A DNA stretch of 60,378 nt from an uncultured Planctomycetia bacterium (GTDB taxonomy: Bacteria > Omnitrophota > Gorgyraeia > Tantalellales > Tantalellaceae). Where the stretch lies: positions 1 to 60,378 of the forward strand of contig CAZGOG010000007.1 in the NCBI GenBank assembly GCA_964527555.1. Reading direction: 5' to 3'. This document shows, piece after piece, positions 1 through 52,571 of this stretch. The position numbers and the translations under genes were made by a program. The notes under the pieces are model-generated. The model had not been told where the DNA came from. It searched no databases and saw only the letters and a program-made list of their open reading frames with translations. Every line of letters begins with the position of its first letter. Position 1 is the stretch's first letter.

Positions 1-210
1 CGGAAGAACAAACTGCTCTCTGTCGGTGCGTGGGATGAGATGCAGGTTGCCGAAGACTATGAACTGGGGCTTGTATTATGGTTTAATGGTCTTAACGTAC
101 CTAATTTTTATACTCTTACTTCAGAGGACCCGGCATCCACTACGTTCCTTACTTTTGAGGTAAGGACGCTTCAGACCTCAAGGTGGAACAAGGGTTATAT
201 AATAGGACTG
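1..210 (+). other. GT2 (cellulose-synthase-like) catalytic C-terminal motifs in G1
   Basis: VGAWDEMQVAEDYELG matches the GxWDxxxxxED motif; QTSRW (172-186) is the QxxRW motif; hydrophobic TM helices follow. Confidence 0.85.
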
Positions 211-3200
211 CTCCAGATTGTTGGTAAAGGGTATATGTGGCGCCTTATCCGTAAAAAAGGAATGATAGGTGCTATTAATTTCCTCGTTCCGACTTTAGCA
301 AGTGCGATATTCCCGTTCTTATTCAGGATATCCAAACTGTTTGCGCTATTCTGGTGGACTTTCTATATACCTGTACAGGCTATAGGCAGCTTGGTGCTTA
401 ACAGCCAGCTTGGCCCGGTTGGCGTATGGTTACAGAATAACCTCGCCATAGGCACTATAGCTACTGATATGCATGAGTTTGTCTCGACGGTAGTACCTAT
501 TGCGCTTAACTTTAACCCCGAGGGATGGGGCTGGGCGGTGGGACCGGTAATTTCACTATCGATGATACTTATACATGCATTTTTCACGGTTGCCTCGATT
601 TTCCAGGGCCCTGATGACGAGTTAGGGCTTGAGACTGCAGACGGTATGTTTGAAGAATTTATTGATAAACTGGAAAATCCGGAACTTGATCGTATCACTG
701 ATATAAGGCAGTGGGCGATGAAAGAATTTGGGTATACGCCTGCAGAAGAAGCAGCGCTTACCGACGAGGAGCGACTTAACATTGTTGTTTCTAATATAGG
801 ACAGTTGTCATTGGTGGAAGGATTCAAAATAACGCAGGAGAAAGTAGATGTCCTTACACCGGGAGAAGAGGACTACCTGAAGTGTGCCGCATGGGGAGCA
901 GCGAATTTGGGATTAAACCCGAGAGAAGCAGTAAGGCGCGTGGATGATATCGGAGGCGCTATGCAATCCGCGATAGAAGAGTTAAAGGAGTCACGCAGGC
1001 ATGTTCAAGCTGGACGCATTAAGAATATAACATTTGTAGGTGGCAGGATCGTTAAGCTTAGCCTGGTTTCGCCTGCTTTGTGGATAGTGTTTGCAGGCCT
1101 TTTCTTGGGTTCTGTTGTGGCGGTGGCCTCAGCATGGAGTTTATTCTCTTTTGGAATGATTACCGCCGCTTTTACAATCGGGTTTACAGTTGTAGCTTTA
1201 GGCTTAGGGCTTGGATATATACATCTTGCTCCGGCAGGATCGATGCAGCGTTCCATAAGGGCAATGCGATTCCGTCTTGCTATGATCAACATGTTCATAC
1301 CGTTCTATCATATGCTGTATCTTTATGGCAACCGTGTCGCCTGGGGCGAAATAGGCCCGAGGATAGGATACTGGCATTTAACACCGCGTGCCGCCGATAT
1401 TCCCGCGGAAATTGCGAAAAAATACCTGGCCAAAGAACCGCAAGCGCCAAAGTTTGATCTCTTTAAAGGCACGACAGCTATAGATAAAGAACTTGAAACT
1501 CCGAGAAAGAGACTGCAGGCGGTACTTAATTATACGTTTCTGGGGGCGATATTTTATGCGATAGCTTATGGACTGAGAGCCGACCTAAGCGATTTTCGTT
1601 TGGGTACTATGATAACAGAATGCTTAAATATAAGCTTTGTCGAACCTGAAGCAGTTCAGATTCTCGGCATGGCCCCTTCAGCATTTTTCCTATGGGGAGT
1701 TGCAATAGGGTTGTTTATTTTAGTGACGGGAGGATTGATCAAGTTTATCAAGAAAGTATGGAGTTTAAGCCGTCCCGAACCGCTTATCCCCTGGGATACA
1801 AATAGACTAGGAAGAGGCTGGGCGGCAGTTTCGCCGACACGGCCGCTGGTGCCGCCTAGAGAGGCTCAGATCAACGGAGAGGCGCCCCACGCATTCCGTA
1901 CGATATCCGTATGGTCATTATTCGGTCTTGGAGGGGGATATGACTGGCTTTTCTACGGCCTGGTTTTCGGTCTTGGAATAATCCCCGCTTACATGATTGC
2001 AAACTGGCAGGGGCTTTCCTATATAGGTACAGGGCTCGGTGTAATGCTTGCTATTATTTCCTTGATATTTGCAGTTACGGGCCGTGACAGGGCAAACGCT
2101 GTTAGAGAAGCTATCCGCCAAGCCCATCCCGAGTTTAACAAACTGGAAGTCTTAACGCATAATATTGGAACCGACGAGGAAGCACTTAAAAAACTCCAAG
2201 AGATCTCTCCTGAAATTTATAAAGACATAAAGGAACACGAATTCTACGAGACGCCTTTTATCGGCCATGTGCTGGGTTTGTGGCCGTTTGTACGGAGAGC
2301 CTTTGTTCTTACCTCGGTGATATCAGCTATAGAAAGTATTTTTATTGCAAAACCACTGCGTCAGACTCCGGTTATTGAAAGAGAAGCCGGTGAGGAAACG
2401 CCTGAAGAGATATTTCGAGTGATAAACGTTACGGTACGCGGTGAAAAGCAGAAGATAGACCAGCCAGTTAAAGCCGCAGTTTTAAGGGTTAAGCCTGCCA
2501 GTACAAATATAACATTAAGCAGAGAGCCGGATTTGAATATCTCATCAGGAGTAAAGCGCGACGGTAGATACGCGTATCGCGTAATCGCCGGAAAACGGGT
2601 TTATGATAACGAACCTCAAGATGCTATGCGCAGGGATATGCCGACTGTTGGCGACCATATCCGCCGGTTTAAAAAGGATCATCCGGATGAAGAGATAATC
2701 GCCATGACGGGGTTTGGGAACCTCTTCATGAATAAATACGTCGTGGCCTGGAAGAACGGCACTTTGTATCATTTAGACGGGGAGGATACCGGCTCCCGCG
2801 AATATTACTGTATAGTACAGCATAAGGAAGATGCCCGCATGTCGCTTGAGAAAGTCAGATTCGCAAGTAACGCTGACGGCACTTATGACATTATAAGAGT
2901 GGATGATAACAGGAACATCTCCGATGATATAGTCTGGGCCGCCAGCGGGCAGCCGGCTATATATAAAGGTGAGATAAAAGGATTCAGCGATACATGGCAG
3001 TACTATTACGACATAAGGCAGCTTGTGAGCCTGCCGTTTATTGCCGGCACGCACCTGGGGATCTCACAGTTCTTTGAGGACAATGAGGCCCAGGATATAA
3101 AGAAAGAGATATTCGAAAAAGTCGCCGCGAAAAAGGTAGTTGAGATCGATATACAGGATCTGGATCTGGCGGAGATAAAAAAGGCCCTTGCGGAGAAAGC

Positions 3201-6195
3201 ATATACCGAAGTGAGCGCGGACACGATTGCCAATCAGGGCGAATATTACATAGAAAACGGGAAGCTTTACATCATCTTTTATTTCGGGGTATACCCGCAT
3301 CATCTCTTGTGTCTGACCGAAAACGGGGAGTATCTGGATGTGGAAATCGACGGTAAATCGAATGTACGCGGCCTGAACACGGAAGAACTCGGCAGGTGGC
3401 TGCGCGAAAACATAGACCCGGCTATAACCGATGCACTTGTCGTGGATAACGGCGCGGATATTTTCATGAGATATAAAGATGAAGAGGTGCTAGGGGCCAG
3501 GGACCGGTTTACCACGATGGTAATATACTCGAGACCGGTTGAGCCGTCTCTTGCACCGCAGCTATTGGAGATGGCGCCGGAAGATCTATTCCTGATGCAT
3601 AACGCTGCGTATGTGGAGAACCATGCAAGAAGAGTTGTCAGGGTATCTGAACTGATAAGCCCCATAGCTATGCGCTTGGCGGAGAAGGAGCTTTCAGAAG
3701 ACCTCGTTAGCAAGATCAGGATTGTTGCTGCAGCTCATGATCTAGGCGGTCCGGCGACGCTTGTTCATCCGTCTGAAGAAGCTGCTATTAGAGAGAGCCT
3801 GGAAAGTAAAGGCATTAAAGTTCCAGAAAAGCCTTCAAGGGATATCGAGGCGTATGAGAGGACAAGACGGGAACTTGAGGAAAGAAGGGGCGAATTTTCC
3901 CTTAAAGAGATAAATTACGCGCTTGACCTTTACCAGGGGCCGTCGAGTTTACGCGCATTGGATGAAAAAGGCATCATGGTACCGGAGAATATACGCACTG
4001 CGATACTTTTCCATCATCACATAGAGGAATTGGAAGGGTACTTGGCTGAGCAGCCCTGGAGCGATGTAGAAAAAGACGAGACTCGGCAAATCCTCGAGGT
4101 ACTTGTCGCTTCCGATATAATCGAAAACGGTATAAACCGTTTTAAACGCATTTATTATAGAGGCAAAAACCAGATCGAAACGCCTAAAAACACTTTAGGT
4201 TTCATGACGAGAGTGTACGGAAAAGTCCTGCCGCAAGAAGTGATAGAAGCTTACAAATCGCTTGTTGACTGGCAGACAGAAGAAGGCGAGTACGAGGACG
4301 AAACCATGCGAAAAATAGTCTCTGACGCTAAACAAATCGATACCGCCGAAAAGAACTGTTTACTTGATGAGAACATAAACCCGAGGAAGAGGTCCATTAT
4401 GGAGGTAGAAGAGGAAGAACTCCTTGGTCTTGCCACAAACGAGCTTAATAGAGAGCATATTCGAAGGATCATCGCGATGTTTGATATCCTGTGGCCGCTG
4501 GGAAGAGAAGCCAAAACAAAGCAACAAAAAGAAGACCTCCAATATTACCGGCGCGTCATGCACAGATTTTTTATAGTCCATGCTATGGACAGCCCTTACG
4601 GGACAGACGCAATGGTCACCGGCATGGACCATGCAGAAGACCCGTACCGCGTGTTAGCGGAAAATAATATCGTCAGCGCCGATGAAATAGACGCACTTCT
4701 CCACGACAGCGCTTTTAGGAATAAGAAAGCAGCATTTAGAAGTATCGACCAGTCAAATCTGGATCCCGTCAAAAAAGAATGGCTGAGAGCCATGTATGTC
4801 TATTCCACTATAGCCGACTCTATAGAGATGGGTTCGGATTATTTAAGGAAAGTTGAAGTAAGAAGGAAAAAGGGAGAAGCTGTACGCGCTTTGGAGACAC
4901 CTCTAGAGGCGTTTACTTTCACAAAGAAGAATTTTAAAGACAACGGTATAGAGGCAGCAGATTATCTGACTAAAGAAGCGATTGCCGTGTTTGAAAATAC
5001 AAATTCCAGCGAATACAAAGCATTGCAGGAAGTGATATCCTTCGGTACGGAAAGCACGGTTACACTAGGCATCCCTGAGAATGTATGGAATGCCCTGACG
5101 GAAGAGCATCTAAGGGTTATTAGCCGGATGCAGGACGTCTTCAGAGTCGTAAAGATAGAGGTAACTGATAAAGAAGTGCAGGAGGCTGGCGGAGATGTAA
5201 GAGAAGCACAGCTTAAGAAACTGGAGAACCTTACCATGCTGCACAGGGGTATAGACGTTCTTCTCGATATAGACGCGGAAGGCATGACAAGCGCGCAAAT
5301 ATTAGCTCAGGCCGGCGATGTTATCGAAAAGGCCAGGGAAAATGTTATTGGGCTTATGCATCCCGAAACCGCTGCATTAACGGAAGAGAACGTCGCAAAG
5401 ATCCAAAATATAGATAAACTCGCGAATATAGCAGGAATACTGGCACGCATGCCGTATTCCGACAACAAAGCTCTTATAGGCGAAAAGAGTTTATACGAGA
5501 TAAGGATAGAGAAGATCCATGCTAAGCTGCTTCCCGGGGAAATGATGGCCCAGGTTCGAAAGACTTTTATGTCGAAGGATACGAATGAGCTTGGCGCAAA
5601 ATACTTCAACGTAACGGCCAGAAGAGTAGCTGACTTAAAACTCATAGCCGATGCTATAGAAGGCATGGGTATGAGCAAGGAAGAAGCGTCAGAGCGCATC
5701 ATGGTGACGGTAATGAACGAAAATATAACGGAAGAGAACCTGGATGAGTATATGAAAGCTATGGCTCTGGATGCTTGCTTGGAGAGAGAGAACATAAAAG
5801 TGCTTACAAAAGATGAGATCGGCAAAGTGACATTTACCAAGCTTATGGAAGTGGTTGAGAACGCCTTCGCGAAGAAGGGGATCAGAGTAGAAAGAAACCA
5901 GATCGCCATAGGCGATACGGCGGAGGATCTAGTAAAACCGGATGAGGAGACAATCTTCACGGATGCTGATGCTCCTCTATACGTCCAGATGCAAGGCGAA
6001 GGCATAGTATCACAGCTATTACTCACGCTGCTTGAGATCGCATCCACCGAGACTATACCGGAAAGCCTGGGTAAGGCTACTGTCAAGGACGGCTATAAGA
6101 GATGGTATATATACATGCCGAATATAGAGAAAATAGACTTTGAGGACTTGAGAGTGGAGCTTGAGAATTATGAACAGGTTCTGATAAGGGCTTAA
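1..6195 (+). CDS. Giant multidomain membrane protein G1, 5'-partial: C-terminal half of a processive GT2, multiple TM helices, NAGPA-like domain, two HD domains, shared C-terminal domain
   Basis: Frame 1 is open from base 1 (RKNKLLSVGAWDEMQVAED...), so the ATG at 40 is internal. Stop TAA at 6193-6195. Domain motifs are listed in separate features. Confidence 0.95.
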   Translation, partial: RKNKLLSVGAWDEMQVAEDYELGLVLWFNGLNVPNFYTLTSEDPASTTFLTFEVRTLQTSRWNKGYIIGLLQIVGKGYMWRLIRKKGMIGAINFLVPTLASAIFPFLFRISKLFALFWWTFYIPVQAIGSLVLNSQLGPVGVWLQNNLAIGTIATDMHEFVSTVVPIALNFNPEGWGWAVGPVISLSMILIHAFFTVASIFQGPDDELGLETADGMFEEFIDKLENPELDRITDIRQWAMKEFGYTPAEEAALTDEERLNIVVSNIGQLSLVEGFKITQEKVDVLTPGEEDYLKCAAWGAANLGLNPREAVRRVDDIGGAMQSAIEELKESRRHVQAGRIKNITFVGGRIVKLSLVSPALWIVFAGLFLGSVVAVASAWSLFSFGMITAAFTIGFTVVALGLGLGYIHLAPAGSMQRSIRAMRFRLAMINMFIPFYHMLYLYGNRVAWGEIGPRIGYWHLTPRAADIPAEIAKKYLAKEPQAPKFDLFKGTTAIDKELETPRKRLQAVLNYTFLGAIFYAIAYGLRADLSDFRLGTMITECLNISFVEPEAVQILGMAPSAFFLWGVAIGLFILVTGGLIKFIKKVWSLSRPEPLIPWDTNRLGRGWAAVSPTRPLVPPREAQINGEAPHAFRTISVWSLFGLGGGYDWLFYGLVFGLGIIPAYMIANWQGLSYIGTGLGVMLAIISLIFAVTGRDRANAVREAIRQAHPEFNKLEVLTHNIGTDEEALKKLQEISPEIYKDIKEHEFYETPFIGHVLGLWPFVRRAFVLTSVISAIESIFIAKPLRQTPVIEREAGEETPEEIFRVINVTVRGEKQKIDQPVKAAVLRVKPASTNITLSREPDLNISSGVKRDGRYAYRVIAGKRVYDNEPQDAMRRDMPTVGDHIRRFKKDHPDEEIIAMTGFGNLFMNKYVVAWKNGTLYHLDGEDTGSREYYCIVQHKEDARMSLEKVRFASNADGTYDIIRVDDNRNISDDIVWAASGQPAIYKGEIKGFSDTWQYYYDIRQLVSLPFIAGTHLGISQFFEDNEAQDIKKEIFEKVAAKKVVEIDIQDLDLAEIKKALAEKAYTEVSADTIANQGEYYIENGKLYIIFYFGVYPHHLLCLTENGEYLDVEIDGKSNVRGLNTEELGRWLRENIDPAITDALVVDNGADIFMRYKDEEVLGARDRFTTMVIYSRPVEPSLAPQLLEMAPEDLFLMHNAAYVENHARRVVRVSELISPIAMRLAEKELSEDLVSKIRIVAAAHDLGGPATLVHPSEEAAIRESLESKGIKVPEKPSRDIEAYERTRRELEERRGEFSLKEINYALDLYQGPSSLRALDEKGIMVPENIRTAILFHHHIEELEGYLAEQPWSDVEKDETRQILEVLVASDIIENGINRFKRIYYRGKNQIETPKNTLGFMTRVYGKVLPQEVIEAYKSLVDWQTEEGEYEDETMRKIVSDAKQIDTAEKNCLLDENINPRKRSIMEVEEEELLGLATNELNREHIRRIIAMFDILWPLGREAKTKQQKEDLQYYRRVMHRFFIVHAMDSPYGTDAMVTGMDHAEDPYRVLAENNIVSADEIDALLHDSAFRNKKAAFRSIDQSNLDPVKKEWLRAMYVYSTIADSIEMGSDYLRKVEVRRKKGEAVRALETPLEAFTFTKKNFKDNGIEAADYLTKEAIAVFENTNSSEYKALQEVISFGTESTVTLGIPENVWNALTEEHLRVISRMQDVFRVVKIEVTDKEVQEAGGDVREAQLKKLENLTMLHRGIDVLLDIDAEGMTSAQILAQAGDVIEKARENVIGLMHPETAALTEENVAKIQNIDKLANIAGILARMPYSDNKALIGEKSLYEIRIEKIHAKLLPGEMMAQVRKTFMSKDTNELGAKYFNVTARRVADLKLIADAIEGMGMSKEEASERIMVTVMNENITEENLDEYMKAMALDACLERENIKVLTKDEIGKVTFTKLMEVVENAFAKKGIRVERNQIAIGDTAEDLVKPDEETIFTDADAPLYVQMQGEGIVSQLLLTLLEIASTETIPESLGKATVKDGYKRWYIYMPNIEKIDFEDLRVELENYEQVLIRA
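2570..3535 (+). other. Divergent phosphodiester glycosidase (NAGPA/DUF2233)-like domain in G1
   Basis: YPHHLLCLTENGEYLDVEIDG...GLNTEELGRWL...DALVVDNGADIFM...RDRFTTMVI parallels the family pattern HPRTAIGxTxDGxxxxVVVDG...GxTLxELAxxL...AxNLDGGGS...RxV. Confidence 0.6.
3600..4900 (+). other. Two tandem HD-superfamily phosphohydrolase domains in G1, the second degenerate
   Basis: Copy 1: NHARRV (3622), AAAHDLG (3736), ILFHHH (4012), VASDIIENG (4114). Copy 2: EHIRRI (4456), IVHAMD (4579), IADSIEMG (4816). Both are followed by ETP. Confidence 0.7.
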
Positions 6196-6296: not shown

Positions 6297-6350
6297 ATGT
6301 CCTCACCGCCTGAGTCGTAACAAGCTTAGGGGTGGGGACATTCTTTTTCT
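6297..6350 (+). terminator. Intrinsic terminator after G1
   Basis: ATGTCCTCACC-G-CCTGAG / CTTAGG-GGTGGGGACAT stem (two G-U pairs) followed by TCTTTTTCT. Confidence 0.8.
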
Positions 6351-6466
6351 GGCAAGCAGCCAGTTTTATATTAATTTACATAACATATTATAAATATTAG
6401 ACTTGAGAATCCAAGGAAAAATTATTTTACAATATGTTAAGATTCAAAAAAGCTTGCAAAGAATTA

Positions 6467-6494
6467 TTGACTAGAATTAAGCATGTGTTATAAT
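6467..6494 (+). promoter_or_regulatory. sigma70-type promoter with extended -10 for G2
   Basis: TTGACT (6467-6472), 16 nt spacer, TGn, TATAAT (6489-6494). Confidence 0.7.
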
Positions 6495-6554: not shown

Positions 6555-9500
6555 ATGGCGGGGGAATATATAAAACAGGGAATTTGTATGGATATACAAA
6601 ATAATAGAAAAAGTCACTTCCATGAAAAAACTTTTCATTATAAGGAAGTTTGCCCATTCTTCTCAAGCACAAAAGAAGATAATTCCAACTATGGCATAGC
6701 GGACTGGAAAAAGCGCAATGCCTTTTTTATTAAATGCGTAAGTATTTTGTTATCAATCATTTTCTTCCACCAGCAGGCCGGCTGGACCCAGGAAGGCAAA
6801 CCTGTCTGGACAGAGATCAAGAGCTATGACGCCTATCACGAAAAACTCGACAACACCAGTATAGACATTCCTTACGATGTCGCAAATACCCAGGAAGCTC
6901 TCGCTAACGGCGGAGATGAAGTCATAATCAATATCCAGGACGCTCATGCATCATTGGCCGCCCAGTACTCAATTGCCAAACTCTTAGATTCACTTGTCGC
7001 GAATTATGACCTGGAATTTATTGCCATAGAAGGCGGAAGCGGATATATCGACACTTCGCTATTAAAGACGTTCCCGGATAAAAAGGTGAGGGATAAAGCA
7101 GCCAATATTCTTATGGAAGAAGGCCATATGAGCGCAGGTGAGTTTTTTGCTGTGACGCATGACGAAAGCGAGATCGATCTCTATGGAGTCGAAGACGACG
7201 CGCTTTATAATGCCAACGTCGAAAGTTTCAGGGCAGTCGCGGGGGACAGGATAGAGCGCGTTGATAATATCAATAAACTGCTTAAGGAGCTTGAGAATAT
7301 AGAGAGGAAAGTTTCTTCGAACGAGCTTTATACTTTCAGTGAAAACTGTGCCCGGCATAGAGATGGCGAGTTTTCCTTCTCAGACCACTGGAAATATATC
7401 GAAAATCTTGCCGAGAACAAAAAAATCAAGTTTAATCCCGAACCGGAACTGGCAAAACTGGTCGAGGCTATAAGACTCGAAAAAACAATAGATTTCTCCA
7501 AAGCCAATACCGAACGAAAGCGATTAATAGACAGCTTGAGCGATATCATCGGGAAAGCGGAACTTGAAGCGCTTGTCAAGAAGTCGCTTGATTTCAAAGA
7601 AAACAGGATATCGCAGGCAACGTTCCACACTTATATCATAGACCTAGCGGCAAAACACAATATTCCCGCCGACGGATACACTAACCTTATAGCCTTTGCC
7701 GAATACGTGGATATTTATGAATCTGTTGACATCGTAAAATTGTACCGCCAGATGGCGAATCTTGAAAAGACGGTTAAGGAAAAGCTTTACCGCACGGGCG
7801 AAGAAAGAGAGTTTTATGCTCTTAAAAGGATGCTGGAGCTCGCAAAAAAACTTTACAGCTTAGAACTTACGAACGATGAATGCGCCGATATAGAATCAGG
7901 CTACAAGGATTTTACCCCCGCCAGATATGCTTCTTTTATCAAGGATGCCTCTTCAAAGTACAGCCTTGCCATTTCCGGAGATTACGATTTGAGTGAAGTA
8001 TTTAATAGTATTGATGAAGCTCTCAACTTTTACCGGGATGCCGAAGCCAGGAATAGCGCCATTCTTGCCAACACCGTCAAAAGGATGCGTTCCAGCGGCA
8101 AGCGCGTTGCGGCGCTGATTACGGGCGGATATCATACGCAGGGCCTTACGGAACTTATGCGCCAGAAGAAGCTTTCGTACCTGGTAGTCATACCGAAGTT
8201 TGAAGACAAGAGAGAAAGGCCGTATATAGCCATCCTTACCAACAGGAAAAAACCCTACGAAAAGGTGCTTGAGACCGGAAAATATCAGCTCGCCATAGAG
8301 GCAATATTCCGGGATAAGATGGATAGGGAAAGTCAAAAAGCGCTTTTTAGTCTTACTTATGACCTTACCATGCGGGATGCAAGTATCAAGCCTGGCGAAC
8401 GCGAAAGAAAAAGACGGATCTGGATAGAAGCATATGAAGCTCGCTATGACATGCTTGTCGAGCTTAAGGGCAAGAGGGACATGGCGAAAAAAATGACGCC
8501 GAATGAGTTTAGAGCGTTTCTTGCGGGAAAAGCGGCTGAAGAAGACTCCCGGAAAGAAGGGGAGAAAACAGCCGCAGAAAAAACAGAAGAGGAGAAGATA
8601 ACGGAGATAGTAGACTTTGTCATCGCGAATGATCCGGACCTGTATAAGTTAATATCGAGGTTGCTGCCAACTGGGAACGAGACTACCGTAAAAATCAGAG
8701 ACGAAATAAGCGTGCGTTTAAGGAGTAAAGGACTGGAACCCACGGAAGACAATATTCTTAAAGTGATCCGCAGGCTTGAGATCCATTATATAGAGAATAC
8801 GACCACGAGCGAACCTGTTATTGAAGTTAAATTCGGCAGGGAAGAACCGGTTCAGTTATCTATTAGAATGTCCGAACTGGCAGGTGAATTCGCTGATTAT
8901 GTTGCTTTTGTAAAAGGAGGGGGCGAGCTTCAGGATTTAGCGTTTACCAGCGAAGACAGAAAGTTTATTGAAGAGAAACTTACGCTTCTTAAAACAGATC
9001 TTCAGGCGCTGGCCGTTTTTGAGGCGGATGATGAGACAAGACAGCTGATACTCCGGCATACGGATCTGGCAATAGGTGCTTTATACAGCGGACTTAACAC
9101 CTATCCTCCGGATATCAGGGAGGAAGTAGAGGATATAACTTTTACTTACGGGAGCAGCCGGCTTATAAAAGATATCGTTATTTCCTGTGACACGTTCGAA
9201 AAAGCCGAAGATCTTGCCATGAAGATCGGTCTTTATGACGGAAAAACTAAAAGAGAATATTCCCATACTGAGATAATGGCGCTTAAGGGGAGTTTTCAGC
9301 TCGACGAAGAGACGGTAGATGAAGATGACGCAAGGCGCCAGTTTGTTGTAGTAAAAGACTGGCAGGTGTCACGAAGAGATTTTCTGAAAGGCGCGGGACT
9401 TGGGATACTGGCGGGTTCGCTATTGGTATCAGACGAAAATACTGCTCTTGCGGAAAAGCCAAACGGTAATTTGCGTATGGGCCAGCCGGAAGTTTTAGCA

Positions 9501-12500
9501 GGGCGGGCAGGTACGTTCAAATATGTGAAACGACCGCTTTATGATAACGGACATGAGCTGGGCGTAGCTATAATTAGGTATTCAGAAAAAGATCCTAAGG
9601 GAGAACTCATTCTTTATAACTCTTATGAAAAGATGCTTAAGGCGCGGGGAGTAGATATGCGTTATCTTCCGCCCGAGCCGCGGACAAAGGTAAATCCCGG
9701 GGTGCTGAAAGAACCTGTCCAGAGGATACTAAGCCTCTTAGAAAGCGAATACCCCACGGAAATGAAGGGAGATGAAGAAGAAAAAGGCATTAAAGGGCTG
9801 AACAAAGTTATAAAAGCCGAGAGGTGGTGCCAGATCTGGGCGGATATATGCAGCGTCCACAGGATGAACGAAGAGCGGGCCAAAGAGCACTTAGAAGGTA
9901 TGTACGGATTTCTGAAGATGGTCATCAAAGAGACCAAAAAGCGCAATGAAAGGCGCCTGAGCGGCTTGAACAAGCGGCATCCCAGGGAAAGAAAAGTAAA
10001 GATGGAGTTCCCGTCTTTGATGGCGGCTATTATGTACGATGTTTTGCCGTTCAGTGAGACGGGTGAAATGAATAACAGATTTCTGGGGCTTCCGGAGATG
10101 CTGATGCTCGCCGATTACCTGCAGTTGGAATTGGAAAAAGATATATGCAAAAATTATATGTACACTATTGCAGGTGTAGAGGAAGGTAAGGTCGAGATAA
10201 GCGAAGAACGAGTGTGGCAGGGCAGAATTGAAAAAACTAAATTCTTTGACATCATCGAAGACCTTACCGACAAAAGATATTACTGGCATATGAGAGTGGC
10301 CATGAAAACAATAAGCGGAGATATATATAAGGAAGGGTACCAGCATAATGGCGACTGGGAAGATTATATAGGACGCCTTGCCGTGTTGGAAGCGTCCAGG
10401 AAGAGTTTCTTCGGGTATAAGGATTCAGAGTTTTATAAAAGGTGGAGGGCAAAAGCGGGGGAGACTTTGGGTGACTATAATAGGAGGATACTCAGGGATA
10501 ACATTGACGAATTAGATATTGTCTACCGGTTTATGATAACTCAGGATCTTTCCCCCGATGAGATGGAGAAGTTAGCGCCGTTTTTGCATGGGCTTGAACC
10601 GGAGCTGGACAATATATTCGGGTCTTATGAAGACGAAAAAGCTCCGGAGCTCATCAGACCATGGCATGGGTCGTATCTCGCGGTGATACTGGACAACTTA
10701 AAGCGGCTTCCCTATAAACCGGACTACGGGCCAATAGTAGAAAGCGAGGTAAGGGAAGTCCGCGCGCTGCTTCATGTCGGCAGGCTCCTAAATGCGGCAA
10801 AAGGTCTGGAAGTGATCGAATTACTTAAGAAAAAGCTGGGTATCGACGAGATACGCAAGAATCTTAACAAAAAGATGGAATTTCTTTTATGGATGGTCAA
10901 GGAACTGCAGCTTTCACAGGATCAGATGCCTGATATATATACCGCCGCGCATTATGTGAAAATCCTCCAGACAATACCGTCACTTATTAAGGAAGGCCCG
11001 GATAAAGGCAAGTATATAAGCACAAAGTATGATGAAGAGGCCTATTATAAAAGAGGCGAGAAGATTGATAAGGAGATTATAAAATATTACGTCGTATATT
11101 ATCCTCCCGAAGGCAGTGAACCCGTCGGCAAGAAAAAGTACAAGACGTTTACGCCGATTGTGGATCAGGATGGCACGAGAGAAGTCCATGTGACGTACGG
11201 CGAAGATACTTATGCCAGAGAGATATGGCGGGTGAATGACGATGCCGCGGAAAGCTTTGACGTAAAAACCGCTGCGATAAACGGTAAGCTGGTAAATAAG
11301 GTCATATACAAAAACGGGCTTCGCATTATCGAGACCGTCGATGATGTGGACACTCCAAAAGGGGGTGTGACAGTCGATGCAAGGTGGTTATACGATGTTT
11401 TCTCAAAGGTATTCCCAAGGCTTGCTACCGAAAAAGTAAAGAAATTCTATGAAAACATAATCGTACCTTTTATAGAGCTGGTATATCCTTTAGCGGCGCT
11501 TTCACTGCTTGCCAAGGTGCAGGGAGTTCCCCTTATGAGCTTTGATTTAGGTTCTTCCATGGCAGTTGCCGCACTTATGGCGGCAGGCGCCGTTTTTGTG
11601 ACTAGTCATATCATAGGCTTATCTACTATCATCAATAAGCTTACCGGTAGAGCCCCGCCGAAGATCGAAAGAGCCTCTCTTATTATCTCCACTTTGATAT
11701 CTTTAGCGCGTGTTTTTATAATCCTTCCAGTTGCGGTAGTCGTGACGAACCTTTGTTTTGGCCGGCCGGATTTAACTATTTTTGTTTATTTGGCTTTAGA
11801 CTGGCTGTTTCATGCAAAGATAAGTTCTTCTGCACCCGGAATAATGAAATGGATAGAAAGACGAACCCGGAAGGACGTGATAAAAGGTGAAGGTAAGGGC
11901 CAGTTGCGAAGGGATTTCATAAAAGAGGTATTAAGCTTTTTGACCGGTGGCGCTTTGATTCCGGCAGGAGATAAAACTGTAGCCGGCGAGTCTCAAGCGG
12001 AAGGCGAGCTTAAAGTTGCGGAAAAACTGCCGGAACCGCCTGAAGAGGTTTTAGAAGGTCTTAAGATGCCTATGATCGATCCCAAAAAAACAGCAGCGTA
12101 CTATATACCGCCGGACAGTAAAACCGGTCGCGTTCTTTTCAGTTCGGATAAGCATAAAATATACGTGCATTTTTATGATGATCTTAAGGATCCTAATTTT
12201 GTGTATATATCGAGCACGGCTAAAAAAGATATGGTTGTAATTGACGGTGTTTACCACCATATTTGGTCCGTTTACAAAGTGAAGGAGAAAAGTACGGAAG
12301 TCGGAGGCATGGTTCATATAGATAAGATGAAGATAATCGGCAAAGCCATAAAGCTGAAATTCGACGGGCACCAGATTATAGACGAAGCTGATCAGCCGAA
12401 AGAAGGCGGAAAGGAGCCTGAAGAAATACCAGAAAAAGCGCCGGAAGTGTCAGGCGAGATTACATTTTCAAGTAAGGGCGAAACGGCTCTTTTAAAAGGA

Positions 12501-15500
12501 TTAGGCGCCGGAGAGACACTTGGAGAGCCTCAACTTCTTGCGGAAAACACAGTTTTACAGCAAGGATGCATTAAATATCCTATATACAGGGAGGGAGCAG
12601 AGGTCGGAGCGGCCATAGTTGATGTTAGCCCCGTGATGGGCGAGCTTCACGAAAGCGTTATCAGCAAAGTTTATTTCAACGAAACAGATAAGCTTATAGA
12701 TTTACGCAGGACTCCTCCCGAGCCCCGTACAAAGATTGATCCGGAAGCCCTGGAAGGTCCGGTAAAAGATATCCTCGCCCTTTTAGAAAGAGAATACCCC
12801 CAAGAGATGACCGGACAAAGGAAAGACGGGACAAGTGTAGAAGGAGCCAAAGCATTAAACGGCTTTGTAGGCATCCATAGGACGGAGAAGCGTCCCGGCT
12901 GGTGCGAGATCTGGGCGAATATATGCAGCGTTCACAGGATGAGGGAAGAAGTAGCTGTAGAACATTTAAAAGGAGTCCGCGTCTTTTTAGAGATGATCAT
13001 CGGGGAACTTAAAAAACGTAATACAAGAAGGGAAGAAGAAGGCAAGAAAAAGATGGAACTTCCGCCCGTGTTGGGTCAAGGCATGTATGGGCTCTTGCCG
13101 CTTGATGAAACAGGGGAGATCAATAACAGATTCCCGGGCCTGCCGGAGATCCTGATGCTTGCTGACTTTTTACAGGTACAGTTGATTAAACATAGATTTG
13201 AGAACACAGACATCCCTGACTCCTTACCCCATCGTATTGTGAGCCCTGAATCATTATTTGATTTGTGGATCAATAAAAAGTGCGAAGGTATTGACACAGG
13301 GATCTTTAGTATTGTTGAAGATCTCTCAGATGGGAAAGATATCATCAGAGCAAGAGCACAAATGAAGATTAAAGGCGCTTATATCTATGACAATATGTAT
13401 CAGCATTATGCGGGGGCTGATAAGATAGGACGGCTGGCTGTTTTTGACGCCGCCATGGAGTGTTTCCCTGGGTATAAAAGATGGAAAGCGCGACCAGGAG
13501 AGTCGCTCTATGATTATTATTACAGGATATGGATGAGAAACAAAGATGACTTGAATATCTTTTATAGATTTATAGTTAACCAGGATATGTCACCTGAGGA
13601 GTTAAAAAGACTTACACCGTTCCTGCGCGACCTGGATCCGCAGCTTGAAGAAATTTTTGGCAGTTACGAAGAGATGCCGCTGGAAGACCTGGGTAAAGAA
13701 TGGCACGGGGCGACTCTTGCTGATTTTTTAGAACAGCATAAAGGGGAAAGGAAGAAGCTTGACGAAAGTATGATGGTCAAAGTACAGGCGGAGGATATCA
13801 GCGGCTTACTCCATACGGATAGACTTCTCAACGCCGCAAGAGGGCTTGGAATAGCAGATGAGGTAAAAAAAGGAGTATCTCCCGGGAAAATACAAAAAGA
13901 ACTGGACAAGAAAATAGCATTTTTAAAAGAGATAGTAAGAGATTTCCAGAAAGCACAAGGGCAGACACCGAGTATATTCACAGCGTCCCATTATGTGAAA
14001 AACCTCCAGACTGTACCTGCGCTTATCCAGGAAGGGGAGTATAAAGACGATAAATACATAAGCATAAAATATAACGAAAGAGACTATTATGATAAAGACA
14101 TAAAAACGGTACAGTATTATGTCTTGTATAACGATGAACTGGGAAAAGAAAGCTTCAAGACATTTACGCCGATGGTGGACCAGGACGGCAGAAGAGAAAT
14201 CCATGTAACGTATGGCGGAGATAGTTATGCCAGAGAGATATGGCGGGTGGATAAGGATGCCGCGGAAAGCTTTGACGTAAAAACGGGCAGAATAAACGGT
14301 AGGCTGATAGAAAGGCTCGAGAATATAAATGGAGTTCGTATTATTGAGCCCGTCAAGGATACGGAATATGTAAAAGAAGGCGTTACAGTTCATACAAGGT
14401 GGCAAAGGGTAGTTGCGACTATTCTTTTAGGGACATTTGGCGTGACTTTGCCCTACGAGGCCGGGGCAGCGGCGATGAACGCGGCAATATTGGCCGCAGA
14501 GGTGCAGACGCAAAGACAGCTGCAGCTTGAGATCGCCGAAGAACTTCCAAAACCCTCACCGGAGCTTCTAAAGGACTTTGAAGATGCTATAGCCAACCCG
14601 AAATCACCGGCCTCTTACTATATCCCGCCCGGCAGCGAGACAGGCCGCGTTCTCTTTAGTGCATTGGACAGGATATATGCGCATTTCTACGATGATCTTA
14701 AGGACCCGAAGTTTATTTATGAAACAAGCATGGCCGAAGATGACCTGCTCGAGATCAACGGTAAACTCCACCATGTATGGTCTGTATATGAAGTTGTGCG
14801 CAAAAGCACTGATTCCGAAGGTAAAGTCCAGATAGACGAAACCAAACTGATAGGCGAGGTTATCAATCTTAAGTTTGACAAGGACACGCATCAGGCTGCC
14901 AGCAAGGGAGATAGATTCGCAAATATAAACACCAGGGAAGTCACTTATAAAACGCCGGACGGCAAAGAGCACAGTGACTATTACAGGTACGTAAAGTACG
15001 TAGGGGATGCCCCCGAAGGATTGAAGGAGTATATTTTTAAACGCAAAAAACTCGATGACGGTAAATTTCATCTCGTGGCGGCGCTTGACCCGAAGAAAGC
15101 GGACGTCACCACCGATGGCGAACTAATCATAAAAGGCGACGAGAAAGACGCCATAGTCAAAGAGTATAAATATGACAAAGATTATACATGGCAGTATGAC
15201 TGCAATTTAAAAACGAAGAACATTTTCGCATCTCCTTACAACAGGGTCGCCACTAAAGCTACCAGCAATGCGATAGTCAAGTTAAAGAGTCTCAGCGGGT
15301 ATGAAGACGCTGATGGATTCGTCCTTCCCTATGACAGAGGCGCGTTTCTTAAAAATGTCCTTGAGGAATACGGGTATTATCCGGACGGCAGCCTCATGTG
15401 GAAGAAAGACCATGTTAATAAACAGTATACACTTTACACAGAATATACCATGTTAGGCAGACTTTGCCGGCTTTCCGGCACCATATATGATTATACCCCG

Positions 15501-18500
15501 GAGACGGACACGAAAGGCGAGGAGCTTAGGAGCTTTAGCGGGTATTCGGAATATGAAACCGAGACGTTTTTTGCTGTTATTAAGGGGAATCCAGGTGTTT
15601 ATTACAGGACGCTCAAGGGGGCAGAAAGAGCTGACGCGCTTTTAGAGGCCAGCCCAAACCCTCAAGCGGGGCGCATGGATATTACAGGGATATTGAAAGA
15701 GTTCGAATATAATGCTGACGGCAGCCTTGCAAAAGTCTGGGATTATAAGTTAGGCGAAGTCGCGGTTTATAAATGGCATAGAAAATTCGGCACCGAGAAA
15801 AAGCTTACCGATATAGGCGGAGATATATACAAGTTTGACGGCAGGAAAAAAGAGACGAGCGGCGAGCCACTGAGGAGTTTTAACGGCATTACGGACAAAA
15901 CCGGAGCCTTTTTTGAAAGAACGGATGAGCCTGACGTTTATTATTGGACGGAACAAGGCAAGCTGAGAGCTAAAGCTCTTGTAAAAGCAAAACCTGACGA
16001 AGCGCATGACTTGATGCTGGTGGAGAAGGTTATAAAGCATTTCAAGGATAGCCAGATAGAAATAGACGGGAAAAACAGGATATTCGAACTTTCAATCCCG
16101 GGCTCTTTAACTAAAGGTGAACGGTTTATCTGTTACGGCGTCGAAGTAGAGGATCCCAAAAGCGGAAAAAAACTCGAAGATTTTGGTGTAAAAGTCGAGG
16201 CTGTCTGGCAGGGCAAGGATGCCCCCATAAGCGGGATTAAAGTGCTTGAATATTATAAACAGAACATGATTCCCGGAAAAGAGAAATACGCGGGTAATTT
16301 CGGTGTGGACGTCTATGTTTTAGAAGACGGCAAGGTTGCAGAAAAGCCGTTCAAGACTTTCAGGAAACTGGGCCCCAATAGCGCTGAAAGGGACCATATT
16401 TCCAAAGTAGTAAATGATTACGCCGATAAATATCCGGAAAATAATCTGGGCCGCGCCAGTGACGAGGAACTTTTGAATGCATTATTCAACGTAGAAGGAT
16501 ACGAGGAAGGCGACGATGCGTTTCTTAGGGATGTTATAGATAGAGCGCTTGAGATGAGAGGCGTATTAGACGGGATATTCAAGCAGAATAATATTAAAGT
16601 CTTAGAACAAGATAAAACCCTCCAAAATGAGATACTTTCGCACATCTTATACTGGACGGCTGCCGAGGATATAGATTTTGATGAGCTCCTTGAAAAACTG
16701 CCGGAGGCAAGCACCATAAAAGGCCTGATGGAGTACATCCACAGGAAACACAAAGACTTTGACAATCTTCTTAAAGAAGAGAGATACGTAATTGTACTGG
16801 ATACTCTCACCGGCTGTGCCAAGACTATGGTTGAGACGGGAAGATCCAAAAAAGACATGGAAGTCGTACTTAGGGTATGGATACGCTATGAGGACGAATC
16901 TGGAACAGGTGCAATGAATGCCGGTGACGTCTACAAAGAAATAGAGTCGGGTACTTCCGCTATACGCAACAGGGAATATGTATGGGATATTGTTAAAATA
17001 GGTCTTGCAGTTACGGGGATACTCTTCCTGGCGGCAGTATTTTTACGCATTTTAAGATCCCTTAATTCTACTAAAAGAATAAGAGCGTTAGGACCACCGG
17101 CAGCCGGCGCTGGAGATGCGGCTGCCCTTGCGGAAGGAGCAGCAGATGCTGGAGAAGATGCTGCAGGTTCCCCTGAGGAAGCAGGACACGGTTTTGCGCC
17201 AAAGACGGTCAGGGTGCCTATGATTATCGCGGGTGCCGCTCTAGTTTTATCGTGGTTTATGTATACCAACGACTGGTCAATGTGGCTGGTCATACCGCTT
17301 GCGATTATTTCACTATATGTACTGGCCAGATCCTACGCACTTCTTCATAACGGAATCAGGGCCAACATGATGGTCTACGGGATGAGTCCCTGGGAGGCGT
17401 TCAACACAGAGCTTTCATTTTCCGTGAAAAGAGGCGGCAGGTATGATACAGATGCTTTCGAAGTGCTTCCTGCCACTACTAGATTTTTCCCGCCGATGTT
17501 TACCCGCGGTATACTTCAAATACTGGACTACATGCTGGAGGTGTTTGATGTCCTTAAAGATTTTAAAGTATCCCAGCTTAGAGATTATGTGATAGACGAG
17601 TATCGCATCCCTATTTCTAAGAAGGGCAGGGTCGCCAAGACGGGGGATTTTGTGGTGGAAAAAGTACTTGATGTTAAGGAAGATGACACGCCGTCAACAT
17701 TTATTTTGGGTAAAACCACACCCGGCGCGGCGATGCAGGAAATCATAAAACGCCATGAAAGCATAAGAAATCACATTTTGGCTTTACCGGCTTTATATCT
17801 ACCGGCTATTTTCGGATACCATCGAATCCTCGTCTTTCTTGGTCTTGGATCCAAAAGAAGCGGCAAAAAACTTTTTAATAGACCCATAAATCCTCCGAAT
17901 AAATGGGCGGTTAAGCTCAAGGTGAAAACAAGGGATGATATAGAGAAAGAAATCAAAGCGAGGCGCAAAACCAGAGATGATAAAGCTCAAGATTTTGTAG
18001 GGGACATAAGCTTTGACACTGAAAAAGCCTTTAAAAAAGCGCATTACGCGCTTAACCCGAGATTTAAGTGGCCGGGATTTAAAGGTCTTGTGAACGTTGA
18101 CTATAGATGGAATCTGTGGGGGGCAGGATTTCTCCTGACGGGAGCTTTTATTGTTTACCATAATGCCATGAAGGTATGGACTTCCGGTGACTGGGGGGGA
18201 TTTGGCATCTCAGCCTGGGTAGTAGCTGCAGTATTTATGCTGCTAAGCGGCATAATCAACAGAAAGCTTATCTGGGATAAAGCAGGTTTTATCGTTCCTT
18301 TCGTCTCCGGGTTAACCGTGCTTATGGTCAACCTCCTGGCGACAAGTGTCATAGGCGGATGGACCGGATTTGGCCTGCCCATGTGGGGTTTCGGTGCTTT
18401 TTTAGTTATTTCCAGTCTCATAGTCGGTTTTAAGATCAAGCGGGGGGTCTGGTATCCTACCGAAGAGAAACAGACAGAAGCTTTAAAAATCTTAGCAAGA

Positions 18501-21500
18501 CAGCTAGGTGATATCATAGAAAAAGTTAAGGAGAAAATCACATACGGCGATGATGTATTAAAAGCTGAACAGTGGAAAGAAGTCTTTAACTTTCCGGTAA
18601 GAGCTCCCTTTGGTGACCCGGAAGACGCTGTGAATATACAGATGGTGGAGATAGACTTTCTTGGGTATTTAGAATACTGCAGGGACTGGACAACATTTTT
18701 TACCACGAGTCCCAATAAAAACAAATATTACTTTTTCTCAAAGTACCATACCCCGCCTTACGATCCACAGTATTTCTTGCCCACTTTCTGGGTTAAAGGC
18801 CCCGCTTTCACGCAACTTAGGACAAACATGCGCAGAGACGGGTCACCGACAGAGTTTATTTCATATGGTCCGGCTGGGGACCTAACGGTTCAAGAGGGAA
18901 GAGGCCTTCCGTCGATTGATACAAGTATACCGGCACTGACAGCGGCAGTCGAAGGAGAAGAGGGGAACGAAGAAAATCTGGGGATGATCGCTCTTATGCC
19001 GGGAACGGAAGAGGAGACCACTGTACAGTTCGGACCTCAGTATAACCTGGCTTACGAACCCATTACGCATGAGACGCCACATAATGGACAGATAGCTTAC
19101 AGGAACAGTTATCAGACCGCCCCCTGGGACAATATCCTTAAGATGCTTGACCAGGCCAAGGCACGCCTTAAAGATATCAAAGAAGCCGGCGAGAGGCGAT
19201 ATGGAGAAGACTTTGACCCGGATAACATGGCGCAATACCGGCAGGCAAGTCAGGATGACAAGAAAAAGATCCTTTATGCTGAGACCAGATCTGTTGACAG
19301 TTTCAAGGGTTTTGGCGGTCCGGGCCCGGAAAGCTCCAGCTATATCAAGTTCATGAAAAGGCATAAACTGACTATTATCTTTATGAGTGCACTCTTCGTT
19401 CTAGGGACGTATGGCGTATATATAGGCAAAAGTGTGCTGATGTCCTGGAACTGGATACCTGATATGACAGGTATGTCTATTGGTATGCATACAGGCTCAG
19501 TCTTTCTTGCGATGGTGACGATATATATGGTCATGATATCTATTGAGAAGCTGATTCTCTTTTTCTCGAAATTCTTCGGGAATCCCGAGGCGATCACGGA
19601 CGAAGATATACTCAGCGTTCCGCCCAGGATCCTGGTGGAACTCATAAGCGAGATAGAAGTAAAGATGAGAAATGAAGGTAGACCCATACCTTCTTATCTT
19701 GCGAATATTAATCAGCTCAGGGTGAATGTAAATAATGCCGGTCCAGTAGGTGATCAAGCACGGGAACAAGTTCGCAATATAATCATGCAGGCATCCCTGG
19801 AGACCGGTAATTGGGCACAGAGATTTCACCAAAATGTTTCCAATTTTAAATGGGGATACAGAAACTTAAGTTTTTCCAGGAAGGCAGCGTTTTTCGTTCC
19901 GTATCTCCTGGCGCTTTTCATCCTTCAGATCGTACACAGAGTATTCGGATTGTATTATTTCATTGCCCGAAAAGGGAGGATCTTAGCCGAGGAGAAACCC
20001 ACCCTATGGTTTTTGAACCGCCTGAGACTGGAAACGCCTCTATTAAAGGTCATAAGTCTTATAAACAGGCCCAGGCATACGGTTATCGGCATACTGGAAG
20101 AGAGAAGATATCTCACTCCGCAGCAGGCTGCGGATCTTAGAGCTGTAAGAGGCAGGTTCACCAACGAAGACGTCTTGGAACATCTTAATATAAACGCGAT
20201 AAATCATATTCTAAAAGACAATTACATAAGCAGGAGGTATGGCTCGCTTCTAAGGACCGGGATCGTGATGGATACGACGTTTGGAGGTACTACTGGGGAT
20301 AATTTGTGGAGGATGGCAAAAAGTGCCGTTGACAGCTACCCCGGGGGAGTGGACGTTTACCTTATATTTGACGATAATGACGCAGTCGGTCTTAAACAGT
20401 TTGAAGATACAGTACAAAAGATCAGAAACGACCCGACTATGGGGGATCGCGTAGCCGACCGTATTTACCGGCTGACATTTCCGGCACCTTTAGCCAACCT
20501 GGAGCTTACGCAGAGATCTCAGCGCATGAAACCTCCCATGAATGTCGAAGCGGTCATGGCGATACAGCATGATTTTGTTTTAAGGCACAGAGAACCGCCG
20601 GAATTTATGGAACTAGTGGACCAGGAAGACGTTTTGGGAGAGCTTAACCTTGTGACTAAGGCATGTATACGTGACATAAGAGAAAGACATGTCCAGGAGC
20701 AGCTCTATCTCGGTTGTACTACACAGGAGGGCTTGAGGTGGGGGATTGACTACGATAAGGCAGTGTATGGAACAGCTATTAGCCGTTTCTTTGGCCGGAT
20801 TTTTGGTAACACTCCGCTTAGCGGTCTTTTCCCGACAGGGCTTGCCGGGGAATACCACGATATGATAGAGGCTCTTACGAGGGAAGCTAATTATCCGAAT
20901 ACCCTGATAGACCTCATTCGCCTAAAGAACACCCCCGGCGCGACGGCTTTACCATGGGCGACGAGTAATAATGCTGATGAAAGGATCAGGTACATACTTT
21001 GGTGTTTCCTTAAGTCGGCCGGTACAAAAAAAGAGTTTATAGAAAAAGAATTCCGAAGACGCAACATGCCGTCAGTCATACAGTCGGAGCTGAGGCAAGT
21101 TCCGATAAAAGACCCTGAGTGGAGCAAATACTCCTATATGGATTACCTTATCTGGCATAGCACTATACAGACCGGGCAGACGCGTCTCGGATTTCTCTTT
21201 CTCGGCGGGACCGGTAACAATTTCGAGTGGGAAGACTTATCCGGGGTTATTCCCAGATTAGATGCCAACCATAACCTTACAGGGTTTGACTTTATTAACT
21301 GGAGACATTATTTTAATTTCCTCCTGAGGCCCCAGAGAGAAGAGATCCAAAGGGAGGAGACCATTCAGCATAATAGAAAGAAAGAAGAAGGTCTTAGTTT
21401 CAGGCCGGATCTCTTGGTCACAAGGCCTTCTGCTATATATCGAGAATGGGTCAATAAGTACATGCCTACGGGCACATGGGACCTTTTTAATATAATCGAG

Positions 21501-30092: not shown

Positions 30093-30122
30093 TAAAAAAG
30101 GTTCGGCATAAGATCCCACCAA

Positions 30123-30180
30123 AATCGATTGCCATTTATAAGTCTTTGTAAATAAATGACTTGTAAATGGCGGTACGATT
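30123..30180. repeat. Long imperfect inverted repeat after the G2 stop (terminator-like or REP-like)
   Basis: GCCATTTATAAGTC (30131-30144) / GACTTGTAAATGGC (30158-30171), extended by AATCG/CGATT; no adjacent U-tract. Confidence 0.6.
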
Positions 30181-52207: not shown

Positions 52208-52231
52208 CTTCTTTATATATAAGGGATAAGG

Positions 52232-52563: not shown

Positions 52564-52571
52564 GGTGAGTT

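Follow-up and report, generated by a model that had tools for sequence, protein, structure and literature searches.

How the giant proteins of Omnitrophota are made, located, processed and assembled is a current puzzle. The stretch of DNA analysed here (the window) comprises 60,378 nucleotides of contig CAZGOG010000007.1 (assembly GCA_964527555.1), from an uncultured Planctomycetia bacterium that GTDB places in the Omnitrophota, and it is filled by four tandem long open reading frames (ORFs), all on the forward strand, which we call G1, G2, G3, and G4. When G2 and G3 were compared by BLASTP, similarity was detectable at both ends only, and the middles were unrelated. The question that this locus raises is what such shared ends are for, and we focus here on the C-terminal one. 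G1, G2, and G3 all finish in an ‘end-cap’ domain of ~385 amino acids that appears to be an undescribed family as far as the libraries searched show. The free end of this domain is under strong selection, and we tentatively read the domain as a protein-protein docking or assembly module with the free C-terminus in the interface (probability about 0.42).

A first-pass annotation, made from the sequence alone, had reported that all three complete 3′ ends close with a motif of the form (E/Q)(I/V)L(V/I)(R/K)A directly before the stop. Translation reproduced the three endings exactly: G1 ends ...WYIYMPNIEKIDFEDLRVELENYEQVLIRA and G2 ends ...LYIYLPEARAIDLEREVRNYYYRHLREILVKA, and the ending of G3 is given with the coordinates of all features in the table below. 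The same annotation had described the C-terminal regions of G2 and G3 as homologous and that of G1 as a distant version, and both descriptions held. G2 and G3 are 33% identical over ~330–383 amino acids (BLASTP, E 3e-45), and the blocks EHYLV, IVPPG.EI.RRR, DKFF.VAPE, LWMLE, and ILPRK are all present. The G1 tail was not found by BLAST against G2 or G3; a profile built without G1 aligned end to end with it over 333 columns (hhalign, probability 96.9%, E 1.7e-10), a bridging sequence from another locus (L014_5542_13293) matched both G1 (6e-17) and G2 (6e-6), and other family tails matched G1 directly with E from 1e-6 to 3e-13. The G1 domain is ~15–20% identical to the others and represents a divergent ‘G1-like’ subfamily in which the terminal helix is shorter by about two residues. 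Its start had been put at position 5050, which is essentially right, as the hidden Markov model (HMM) envelope opens nine nucleotides earlier, at amino acid 1681.

The shared ending is a property of the protein. Across the three genes the terminal Ala is encoded by GCT, GCG, and GCA and the conserved Leu by CTG, CTA, and CTT, and third codon positions in the tail are 41% identical; because the terminal codons differ synonymously, selection acts on the protein and not on the DNA. An explanation at the RNA or DNA level was rejected on the same grounds, and the window holds no Rfam family and no tRNA. Estimated from amino-acid frequencies, a six-residue ending of the motif form would occur by chance at ~2e-6 per protein end, and since the motif is present in three of three ends, with related endings in 14 further loci and ~118 cluster representatives, chance can be ruled out.

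To delimit the family, a profile of the last 240 amino acids was searched exhaustively with HMMER against 1.84 billion cluster representatives; this search was used in place of word-indexed protein searches, which had returned three matches each, all of them short fragments. The profile matched 123 representatives at E ≤ 1e-3, 96 at E ≤ 1e-10, and 44 at E ≤ 1e-30, ranging from 60 to 7834 amino acids with fragments included (family members span 1863 to 7834 amino acids), and in essentially every case the match reached the last residue. On local recomputation, 97 of the 123 ended exactly at the profile end and none went beyond it by more than one residue. About 15, of the G1-like subfamily, stop 3–5 residues short, and the few larger negative offsets are fragments truncated by contig ends. 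No profile match contained a confident internal or repeated copy, the domain being single in each protein. The homologous ORFs of 14 related loci share this stop position and close with ...(K/R)A in 14 of 14, and the same two terminal domains recur in these loci around variable middles. A genome scan for relatives of the C-terminal domain, with one genome per GTDB species, yielded 12 loci, all in metagenome-assembled genomes titled Candidatus Omnitrophota (7) or uncultured Planctomycetia (5), and the named cluster members are all Candidatus Omnitrophota. The domain thus defines, as the first-pass annotation had supposed, a family of very long proteins, apparently restricted to Omnitrophota, in which it occupies the extreme C-terminus of every informative homologue. 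Its HMM would gather otherwise unalignable mosaics into one family and mark true 3′ ends; together with the N-terminal domain described below, it would identify complete genes in fragmented metagenome assemblies. Weak relatives of G4 in two other loci (L006:1165-7671 and L008:868-5100) are complete and carry a weakly related tail, ending ...FLP.(A/I)EP(L/V).YE.LK..Y.MRKLALQ(A/S)A, whose match to the profile (E 1.4e-5 and 0.015) is confined to its final ~120 columns.

The anatomy of the tail was examined in 118 representatives, and conservation along the whole domain in an 82-sequence alignment. Of the 118, 108 have Ala as their last residue, five V, three L, and two M, and none has an aromatic residue there. 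Ahead of it, position −2 is K/R in 79 sequences and Ala in 19, position −3 is V/I/T in 98, position −4 is Leu in 89, position −5 is V/I in 107, and position −12 is Tyr in 90, while a conserved Pro stands 24–26 residues from the end in 109. Within the domain, conservation is highest over the last 30 columns (2.2 bits per column), and Ala makes up 100% of the aligned residues in the final one. Outside the motif itself, R149 is invariant and R150 invariant or nearly so; P306, Y302, Y304, Y320, Y272, and L193 are near-invariant as well, and D59, D248, and several Tyr residues are highly conserved.

These positions fall into a regular layout: a β-strand of the form (Y/F)x(Y/F), the Pro, a five-residue loop, an Asp/Asn helix cap, a helix of ~19 residues, and the Ala carboxyl terminus (Ala-COOH). 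According to the model described below, the (E/Q)(I/V)L(V/I)(R/K)A motif is the predicted end of this last, amphipathic helix. Hydrophobic positions at −19, −15, −12, −8, −5, and −1 follow a 4-3-4-3-4 spacing, which predicts one continuous hydrophobic stripe that includes the terminal Ala, and over the last 19 residues the hydrophobic moment reaches 1.10, compared with 0.70 ± 0.35 in shuffled controls. The same 19 residues have a mean hydropathy of −0.66, so the terminal helix is not a membrane helix. The tail carries acidic and basic residues in equal number. Hydropathy and residue composition revealed neither a membrane-spanning segment nor a basic tail in the C-terminal tail, and the domain as a whole is acidic, with a median pI of 5.1 and a net charge of −12.

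An AlphaFold (AF2) model of the last 332 amino acids of G2, computed with 45 diverse family sequences, reached a mean predicted local distance difference test score (pLDDT) of 88.5, with 239 residues at or above 90; it supersedes an earlier run with five sequences that gave pLDDT 62 and left the tail unmodelled. The predicted structure has two α/β lobes, residues 1–90 and 120–332, the second with alternating β and α elements and about seven strands. The linker between the lobes is variable in the family, and its residues 91–104 are poorly modelled. At the end of lobe 2 the motif is placed as a strand at 301–304 (LYIY), P306, the five-residue loop, D312 as N-cap, a helix at 313–331, and A332. 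This terminal helix is the least confident of the regular elements (75 and 62 over the last two ten-residue blocks, 52 over the final two residues), and the pairing of high conservation with low model confidence would fit an interface element.

Neither sequence nor fold tied the domain to a known family. Searches of Pfam, NCBIfam, and PDB sequences gave nothing above noise (in Pfam, no other match at E ≤ 1), and a Foldseek search of the whole two-lobe model against PDB and BFVD gave no match at E < 1e-3. The best PDB neighbour (E 5e-3, TM-score 0.28) belongs with generic Rossmann-like proteins, and the weak neighbours, all at E ≥ 5e-3 and TM-score ≤ 0.28, included glucose-6-phosphate dehydrogenase, methylenetetrahydrofolate reductase, glycosyltransferases, and the cytoplasmic C-terminal domains of cation-chloride cotransporters (CCCs). 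In CCCs (NKCC1/KCC) this cytoplasmic domain mediates dimerisation. It is likewise a two-lobed, Rossmann-like α/β domain at the end of a polytopic protein, a resemblance of type only, as the Foldseek matches to it are not significant (E 0.03–0.16, TM-score ~0.2).

In G2, a highly conserved ‘S.RL..KS..QMR’ helix (28929-29075, amino acids 7459–7507) precedes lobe 1; all other members, G1 and G3 included, have it between the lobes. The HMM segments accordingly occur in G2 in the order 125–174, 24–119, and 177–391, and because the helix lies ahead of lobe 1 and not between the lobes, we regard the G2 domain as locally permuted.

The other shared end of these proteins is N-terminal. A signal-like leader with a basic n-region and a hydrophobic core of ~12 residues, followed by ...F.HQQ(I/V)xWAxG, precedes an N-terminal domain (N-domain) that is 52% identical between G2 and G3 over ~640 amino acids (BLASTP). 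Leader and N-domain, the latter ~530 amino acids in this set, were present in 30 of the 30 long representatives whose true N-terminus could be recognised, and the N-domain (~530–640 amino acids) had no match in Pfam or NCBIfam. The leader is conserved far above the level of ordinary Sec signal peptides. In related loci the gene that follows a family member usually opens with the same N-domain, its middle again being variable. Four such downstream genes (L003:18555-19754, L009:13628-14827, L012:18948-20147, and L013:19923-21122) pair the N-domain with another conserved C-terminal domain, A5, that ends ...MPIRPFDP.D.LRQR.KVMWSA-stop and has a superficial Pro...Asp...helix...Ala likeness to the tail described here. 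A wider ‘P...D...helix...A-stop’ superfamily that would include the A5 tails was rejected as homology (hhalign probability 0.2%).

On which side of the membrane does the C-terminal domain lie? We assessed topology by a crude Kyte-Doolittle and positive-inside analysis, in which members with several transmembrane (TM) helices and members with only a leader conflict. Eleven members have a strong TM helix 370–480 residues from the end, directly ahead of the domain, and in 10 of these K/R residues are enriched on the domain side, so that the positive-inside rule puts the domain, as predicted from sequence, in the cytoplasm in those 10. For one member, P0057, the topology consistent with all K/R-rich short loops likewise has the domain in the cytoplasm, and in G1 and G2, too, basic residues flank the final strong TM helix on its C-terminal side. 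Other members lack such helices. The complete members P0033/L007_3461 (1863–1867 amino acids) have no hydrophobic segment at the threshold used, in P0035, P0101, and L014_5542 the leader is the sole hydrophobic segment, and P0103 has the leader plus two weak sub-threshold segments. As there is no other TM segment in leader-only members, the C-terminal domain would be exported in them if the leader is a Sec signal. In a further member, P0071, a TM module recurs three times (amino acids 1344–1541, 1912–2126, and 2548–2701), each comprising a hairpin pair with a loop of 3–7 amino acids, a loop of ~85 amino acids, a third TM helix, and a K/R-rich segment. The third copy stands directly ahead of the C-terminal domain, and analogy with the first two copies suggests that this domain, too, may be cytoplasmic.

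The first-pass annotation had proposed that the C-terminal region is a dedicated sorting, secretion or anchoring signal, while recognising in it no type IX secretion system (T9SS) C-terminal domain (CTD), LPxTG, PEP-CTERM or autotransporter end. We looked for the defining features of each of these and found that none applies. LPxTG occurs nowhere in G1–G4, nor does the GGxGxD of the RTX repeats of type I secretion. The last 60 amino acids contain no PEP motif, and the tail is charged and hydrophilic, unlike PEP-CTERM- or GlyGly-CTERM-type ends. The β-signal of autotransporters and outer-membrane proteins is likewise lacking, since the end is helical and the last residue is never aromatic in the 118 tails. 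The T9SS CTD of Bacteroidota is described in passages of PMC11285876 as a compact immunoglobulin-like 3+4 β-sandwich. Like T9SS cargo, the proteins studied here combine an N-terminal Sec-like signal with a family-wide folded C-terminal domain; unlike the T9SS CTD, that domain has 385 amino acids, two α/β lobes, and a helical end, and is found in Omnitrophota.

The positive half of the proposal fared less well: no result points specifically to a sorting, secretion or anchoring function, and a large, acidic, folded domain with a hydrophilic tail that carries no anchor contradicts the classical forms of such a signal. The proteins already have N-terminal Sec-like leaders, and in multi-TM members with a TM helix directly ahead of the domain the prediction is cytoplasmic in 10 of 11 cases. 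Co-occurrence with a secretion or peptidase locus had been suggested as a check, and the flanks examined in related loci contained no such gene; they held only an ABC permease, a carbohydrate-binding module protein, and an exonuclease. From these results we infer that the domain is neither a cleavable sorting peptide nor any classical kind of membrane or cell-wall anchor.

We favour instead the docking or assembly role introduced above. Possible partners are the N-domain, a second copy of the same protein, and a separate protein; the invariant Arg-Arg pair might take part in the contact, and, as the domain is the last part of the chain to be made, only fully synthesised chains would be competent for assembly. 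We hypothesise that a partner may read the free C-terminus, for assembly, sorting or quality control. A more specific version of the docking role, ‘completion and docking’, holds that the Ala-COOH helix is bound either in trans or in cis, where the binding site may be the Arg-Arg pair or an N-domain, either that of the same protein or that of the one encoded next to it. Full-length chains alone would then be joined, head-to-tail or ring-closed, to form a multi-protein machine of the tandemly encoded giants. We think this version quite unlikely; if true, giant bacterial proteins would follow a principle of assembly or quality control that was not known before.

Several observations weigh against docking. 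The G1-like subfamily also has AV, MA, AA, ML, and SV endings, and because it tolerates them the KA/RA dipeptide itself is not essential. Pairing of the N-domain with the C-terminal domain is not obligatory, since the N-domain also occurs with the non-homologous A5. The topology predicted from sequence is conflicting across members, cytoplasmic in some and exported in others, and contact between the N-domain and the C-terminal domain would be possible only if both lie on the same side of the membrane. The flanks examined in related loci offered no candidate partner any more than a peptidase or secretion gene, and the docking role is one that we infer. Finally, a purely intramolecular structural role of the terminal helix would also explain the heptad-like stripe; were the domain only a structural cap, it would still be a new domain family, with a more modest meaning.

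Among the other explanations, the closest to the original proposal is that the folded domain and its exposed helix are recognised for secretion or sorting by an export machine, for example one resembling the type II secretion system (T2SS) or the type IV pilus (T4P). The N-terminal Sec-like leader combined with a conserved C-terminal domain is the architecture of a cargo with two signals, several complete members have no TM segment besides the leader and would thus carry the domain outside the cytoplasm, the strictly fixed and conserved terminus suits recognition by a secretion machine, and, according to passages of bioRxiv 10.1101/2023.11.21.568195, conserved T2SS-like or T4P-like secretion loci adjoin giant Omnitrophota genes on the upstream side. 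However, no known secretion CTD resembles a 385-residue α/β domain, polytopic inner-membrane proteins would be unexpected as secretion cargo, and both the K/R-rich flanks with the P0057 topology and the gene content of the flanks examined speak against a sorting role; we hold this explanation to be doubtful. A C-terminal degron or quality-control tag, read by a PDZ protease of the Prc/Ctp type or by a ClpX-type unfoldase, would draw on some of the same features. The tail would fit a class II PDZ-ligand pattern, with V/I/T at −3 in 98 of the 118 sequences and A/V/L/M as the last residue in all of them, Ala at both −2 and −1 in 19 resembles the ...LAA of ssrA, and proteolytic processing of giant proteins is proposed by West-Roberts et al. 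in passages of the same preprint. Against this, −2 is K/R in 79, the tail is predicted to be helical within a folded domain and not disordered, no protease gene was seen nearby, and a degron would not require 385 conserved residues upstream, all of which makes such a tag very unlikely.

Alternatively, the Rossmann-like lobes might bind a small molecule, or catalyse, through the Arg-Arg pair and the conserved Asp and Tyr residues, the terminal helix being merely structural. The family-wide conservation of R149, R150, D59, D248, and several Tyr residues would agree with this, as would the nucleotide- or sugar-phosphate-binding character of the weak Foldseek neighbours and the mosaics of metabolic enzyme domains that make up the parent proteins. 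Yet no enzyme family was matched significantly by sequence or fold, the domain has neither a Walker motif nor a glycine-rich one for nucleotide binding, and a ligand site does not account for a domain that invariably comes last, occurs once per protein, and is never continued past the Ala, when other enzyme domains are internal and shuffled; we consider it unlikely. The last explanation is that the shared endings reflect recent tandem duplication and no functional constraint, which the side-by-side arrangement of these paralogous genes would suit. It has next to no chance of being right: identity is only 33% between the G2 and G3 domains and ~15–20% for G1, third codon positions agree at 41%, and the terminus is kept in ~118 clusters at ≤ 50% identity from many metagenomes, so that family breadth and divergence exclude an artefact of recent duplication.

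How does this putative docking domain compare with known systems? Dockerin-cohesin modules and the docking domains of polyketide synthases and nonribosomal peptide synthetases are terminal modules through which different multi-enzyme polypeptides, often encoded side by side, assemble in a defined manner. The proteins studied here resemble such docking systems in having variable catalytic cargo between conserved ends, as a functional analogy only; docking domains are much smaller, and the domain described here has no sequence or fold similarity to them. As a small, well-folded domain, it would offer a tractable experimental target in a phylum with almost no experimental access.

The window has much in common with the giants already described from Omnitrophota: the phylum itself, very long ORFs, N-terminal signal regions, many TM helices, HEAT repeats, and scattered enzyme domains (phosphoenolpyruvate (PEP)-utilising, fructose-bisphosphate (FBP) aldolase, haloacid dehalogenase (HAD), glycosyltransferase (GT), and kinase). 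In these sequence features the proteins match the ‘Archaeovorin’ or multi-enzyme class of Omnitrophota giants, though they are shorter: G2 (7845 amino acids), G3 (7277), and many members of 1.9–6 thousand amino acids fall below the at least 10 thousand clustered in 10.64898/2026.06.07.730766, a difference of size cut-off only. A conserved C-terminal domain, a fixed terminal motif, and a pairing of N- and C-terminal domains are absent from the passages on C- and N-termini in 10.1101/2023.11.21.568195 and 10.64898/2026.06.07.730766. The nearest analogue in logic is Giant1–5 of Apilactobacillus kunkeei, which passages of PMC12863079 describe as a tandem array of genes of 3–8 thousand amino acids whose products join a signal peptide and a variable interior to a C-terminal segment that they have in common. 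The C-termini are not homologous. That of Giant1–5, in the same passages, is a DUF5776 or SH3b-like β-sheet segment, positively charged and without TM helices, for which binding to the Gram-positive wall is proposed; the domain here is, by contrast, α/β, acidic, without a Pfam match, and often found in polytopic proteins of a diderm phylum. Conserved terminal modules of giant bacterial proteins are thus already known as a kind, and it is the domain described here that appears to be new.

Features of the four giant genes and their terminal domains (positions in the window).
Feature	Position	Strand	Description
G1	1..6195	+	2064 codons; 3′ part, 5′ end cut by window start
G2	6555..30092	+	complete gene, 7845 amino acids
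G3	30374..52207	+	complete gene, 7277 amino acids
G4	52572..60378	+	5′ part only; 3′ end cut by window end, tail outside window
G1 C-terminal domain	5041..6192	+	amino acids 1681-2064 of window translation; HMM envelope, hhalign, BLAST bridges
G1 terminal element	6097..6192	+	strand WYIY, Pro, loop, Asp-capped helix, ...EQVLIRA; stop 6193-6195
G2 C-terminal domain	28929..30089	+	amino acids 7459-7845
G2 terminal element	29994..30089	+	LYIY strand, P306, D312 cap, helix 313-331, A332 (numbering of the 332-residue model); stop 30090-30092
G3 C-terminal domain	51056..52204	+	amino acids 6895-7277; canonical order lobe 1, conserved helix, lobe 2
G3 terminal element	52109..52204	+	...LIFMPETILPVDLEEEIRKYYDRITREILVRA; stop 52205-52207
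G2 N-terminal domain	6714..8597 (with leader from 6705)	+	amino acids 54-681; preceded by leader ...FFHQQAGWTQEG
G3 N-terminal domain	30395..32305 (with leader from 30374)	+	amino acids 8-644; preceded by leader MGKMDMYRKHIIYKIISVVLILVFIHEQIGWTQGG
G1 Pfam domain	13-363		GT2 fragment
G3 Pfam domain	32846-33202		Metallophos
G3 Pfam domain	36038-37309		PEP-utilising mobile + PEP-binding
G3 Pfam domain	47774-47953		HEAT_2
G3 Pfam domain	48929-49345		class II FBP aldolase
G4 Pfam domain	57996-58712		HAD-like hydrolase
G4 Pfam domain	59226-59894		APH kinase

Between their ends the giant genes differ widely in content. The retained part of G1 opens with a GT2-like fragment and also contains several TM helices as well as the C-terminal domain of the family. 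G2 is almost without Pfam matches over its 7845 amino acids, the sole one being a weak SprT-like match. By hydropathy, G1, G2, and G3 each have roughly 8–21 TM-like hydrophobic segments, depending on the threshold, with ~15–21 in G2. The database version of G2 (P0007) starts 11 codons downstream, at MDIQNN, and that of G3 (P0009) at MYRKH. G4 has a lipoprotein-like N-terminus (...LFLFNSAC) in place of the family leader. G1 and G4 have in common an internal region of ~400 amino acids (2479-3534, amino acids 827–1178, in G1; 53760-55016, amino acids 397–815, in G4) that is 24% identical (E 6e-20), an instance of module sharing between neighbouring giants.

The gaps between the genes (for example 30092-30374 and 52207-52572) are AT-rich, and every one contains a terminator-like hairpin past the stop and a near-consensus sigma-70 promoter ahead of the next gene (6349-6363 and 6467-6494 in the first gap). 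The promoter at 6467-6494 has 11 of 12 consensus matches and an extended −10 TG. Because each gap holds both a hairpin and a promoter, the giants look like separate transcription units. The G+C content is 0.43–0.48 over G1–G3 and 0.38–0.40 over G4 (52001-60000), and the lower value may reflect a different origin or age of the fourth gene.

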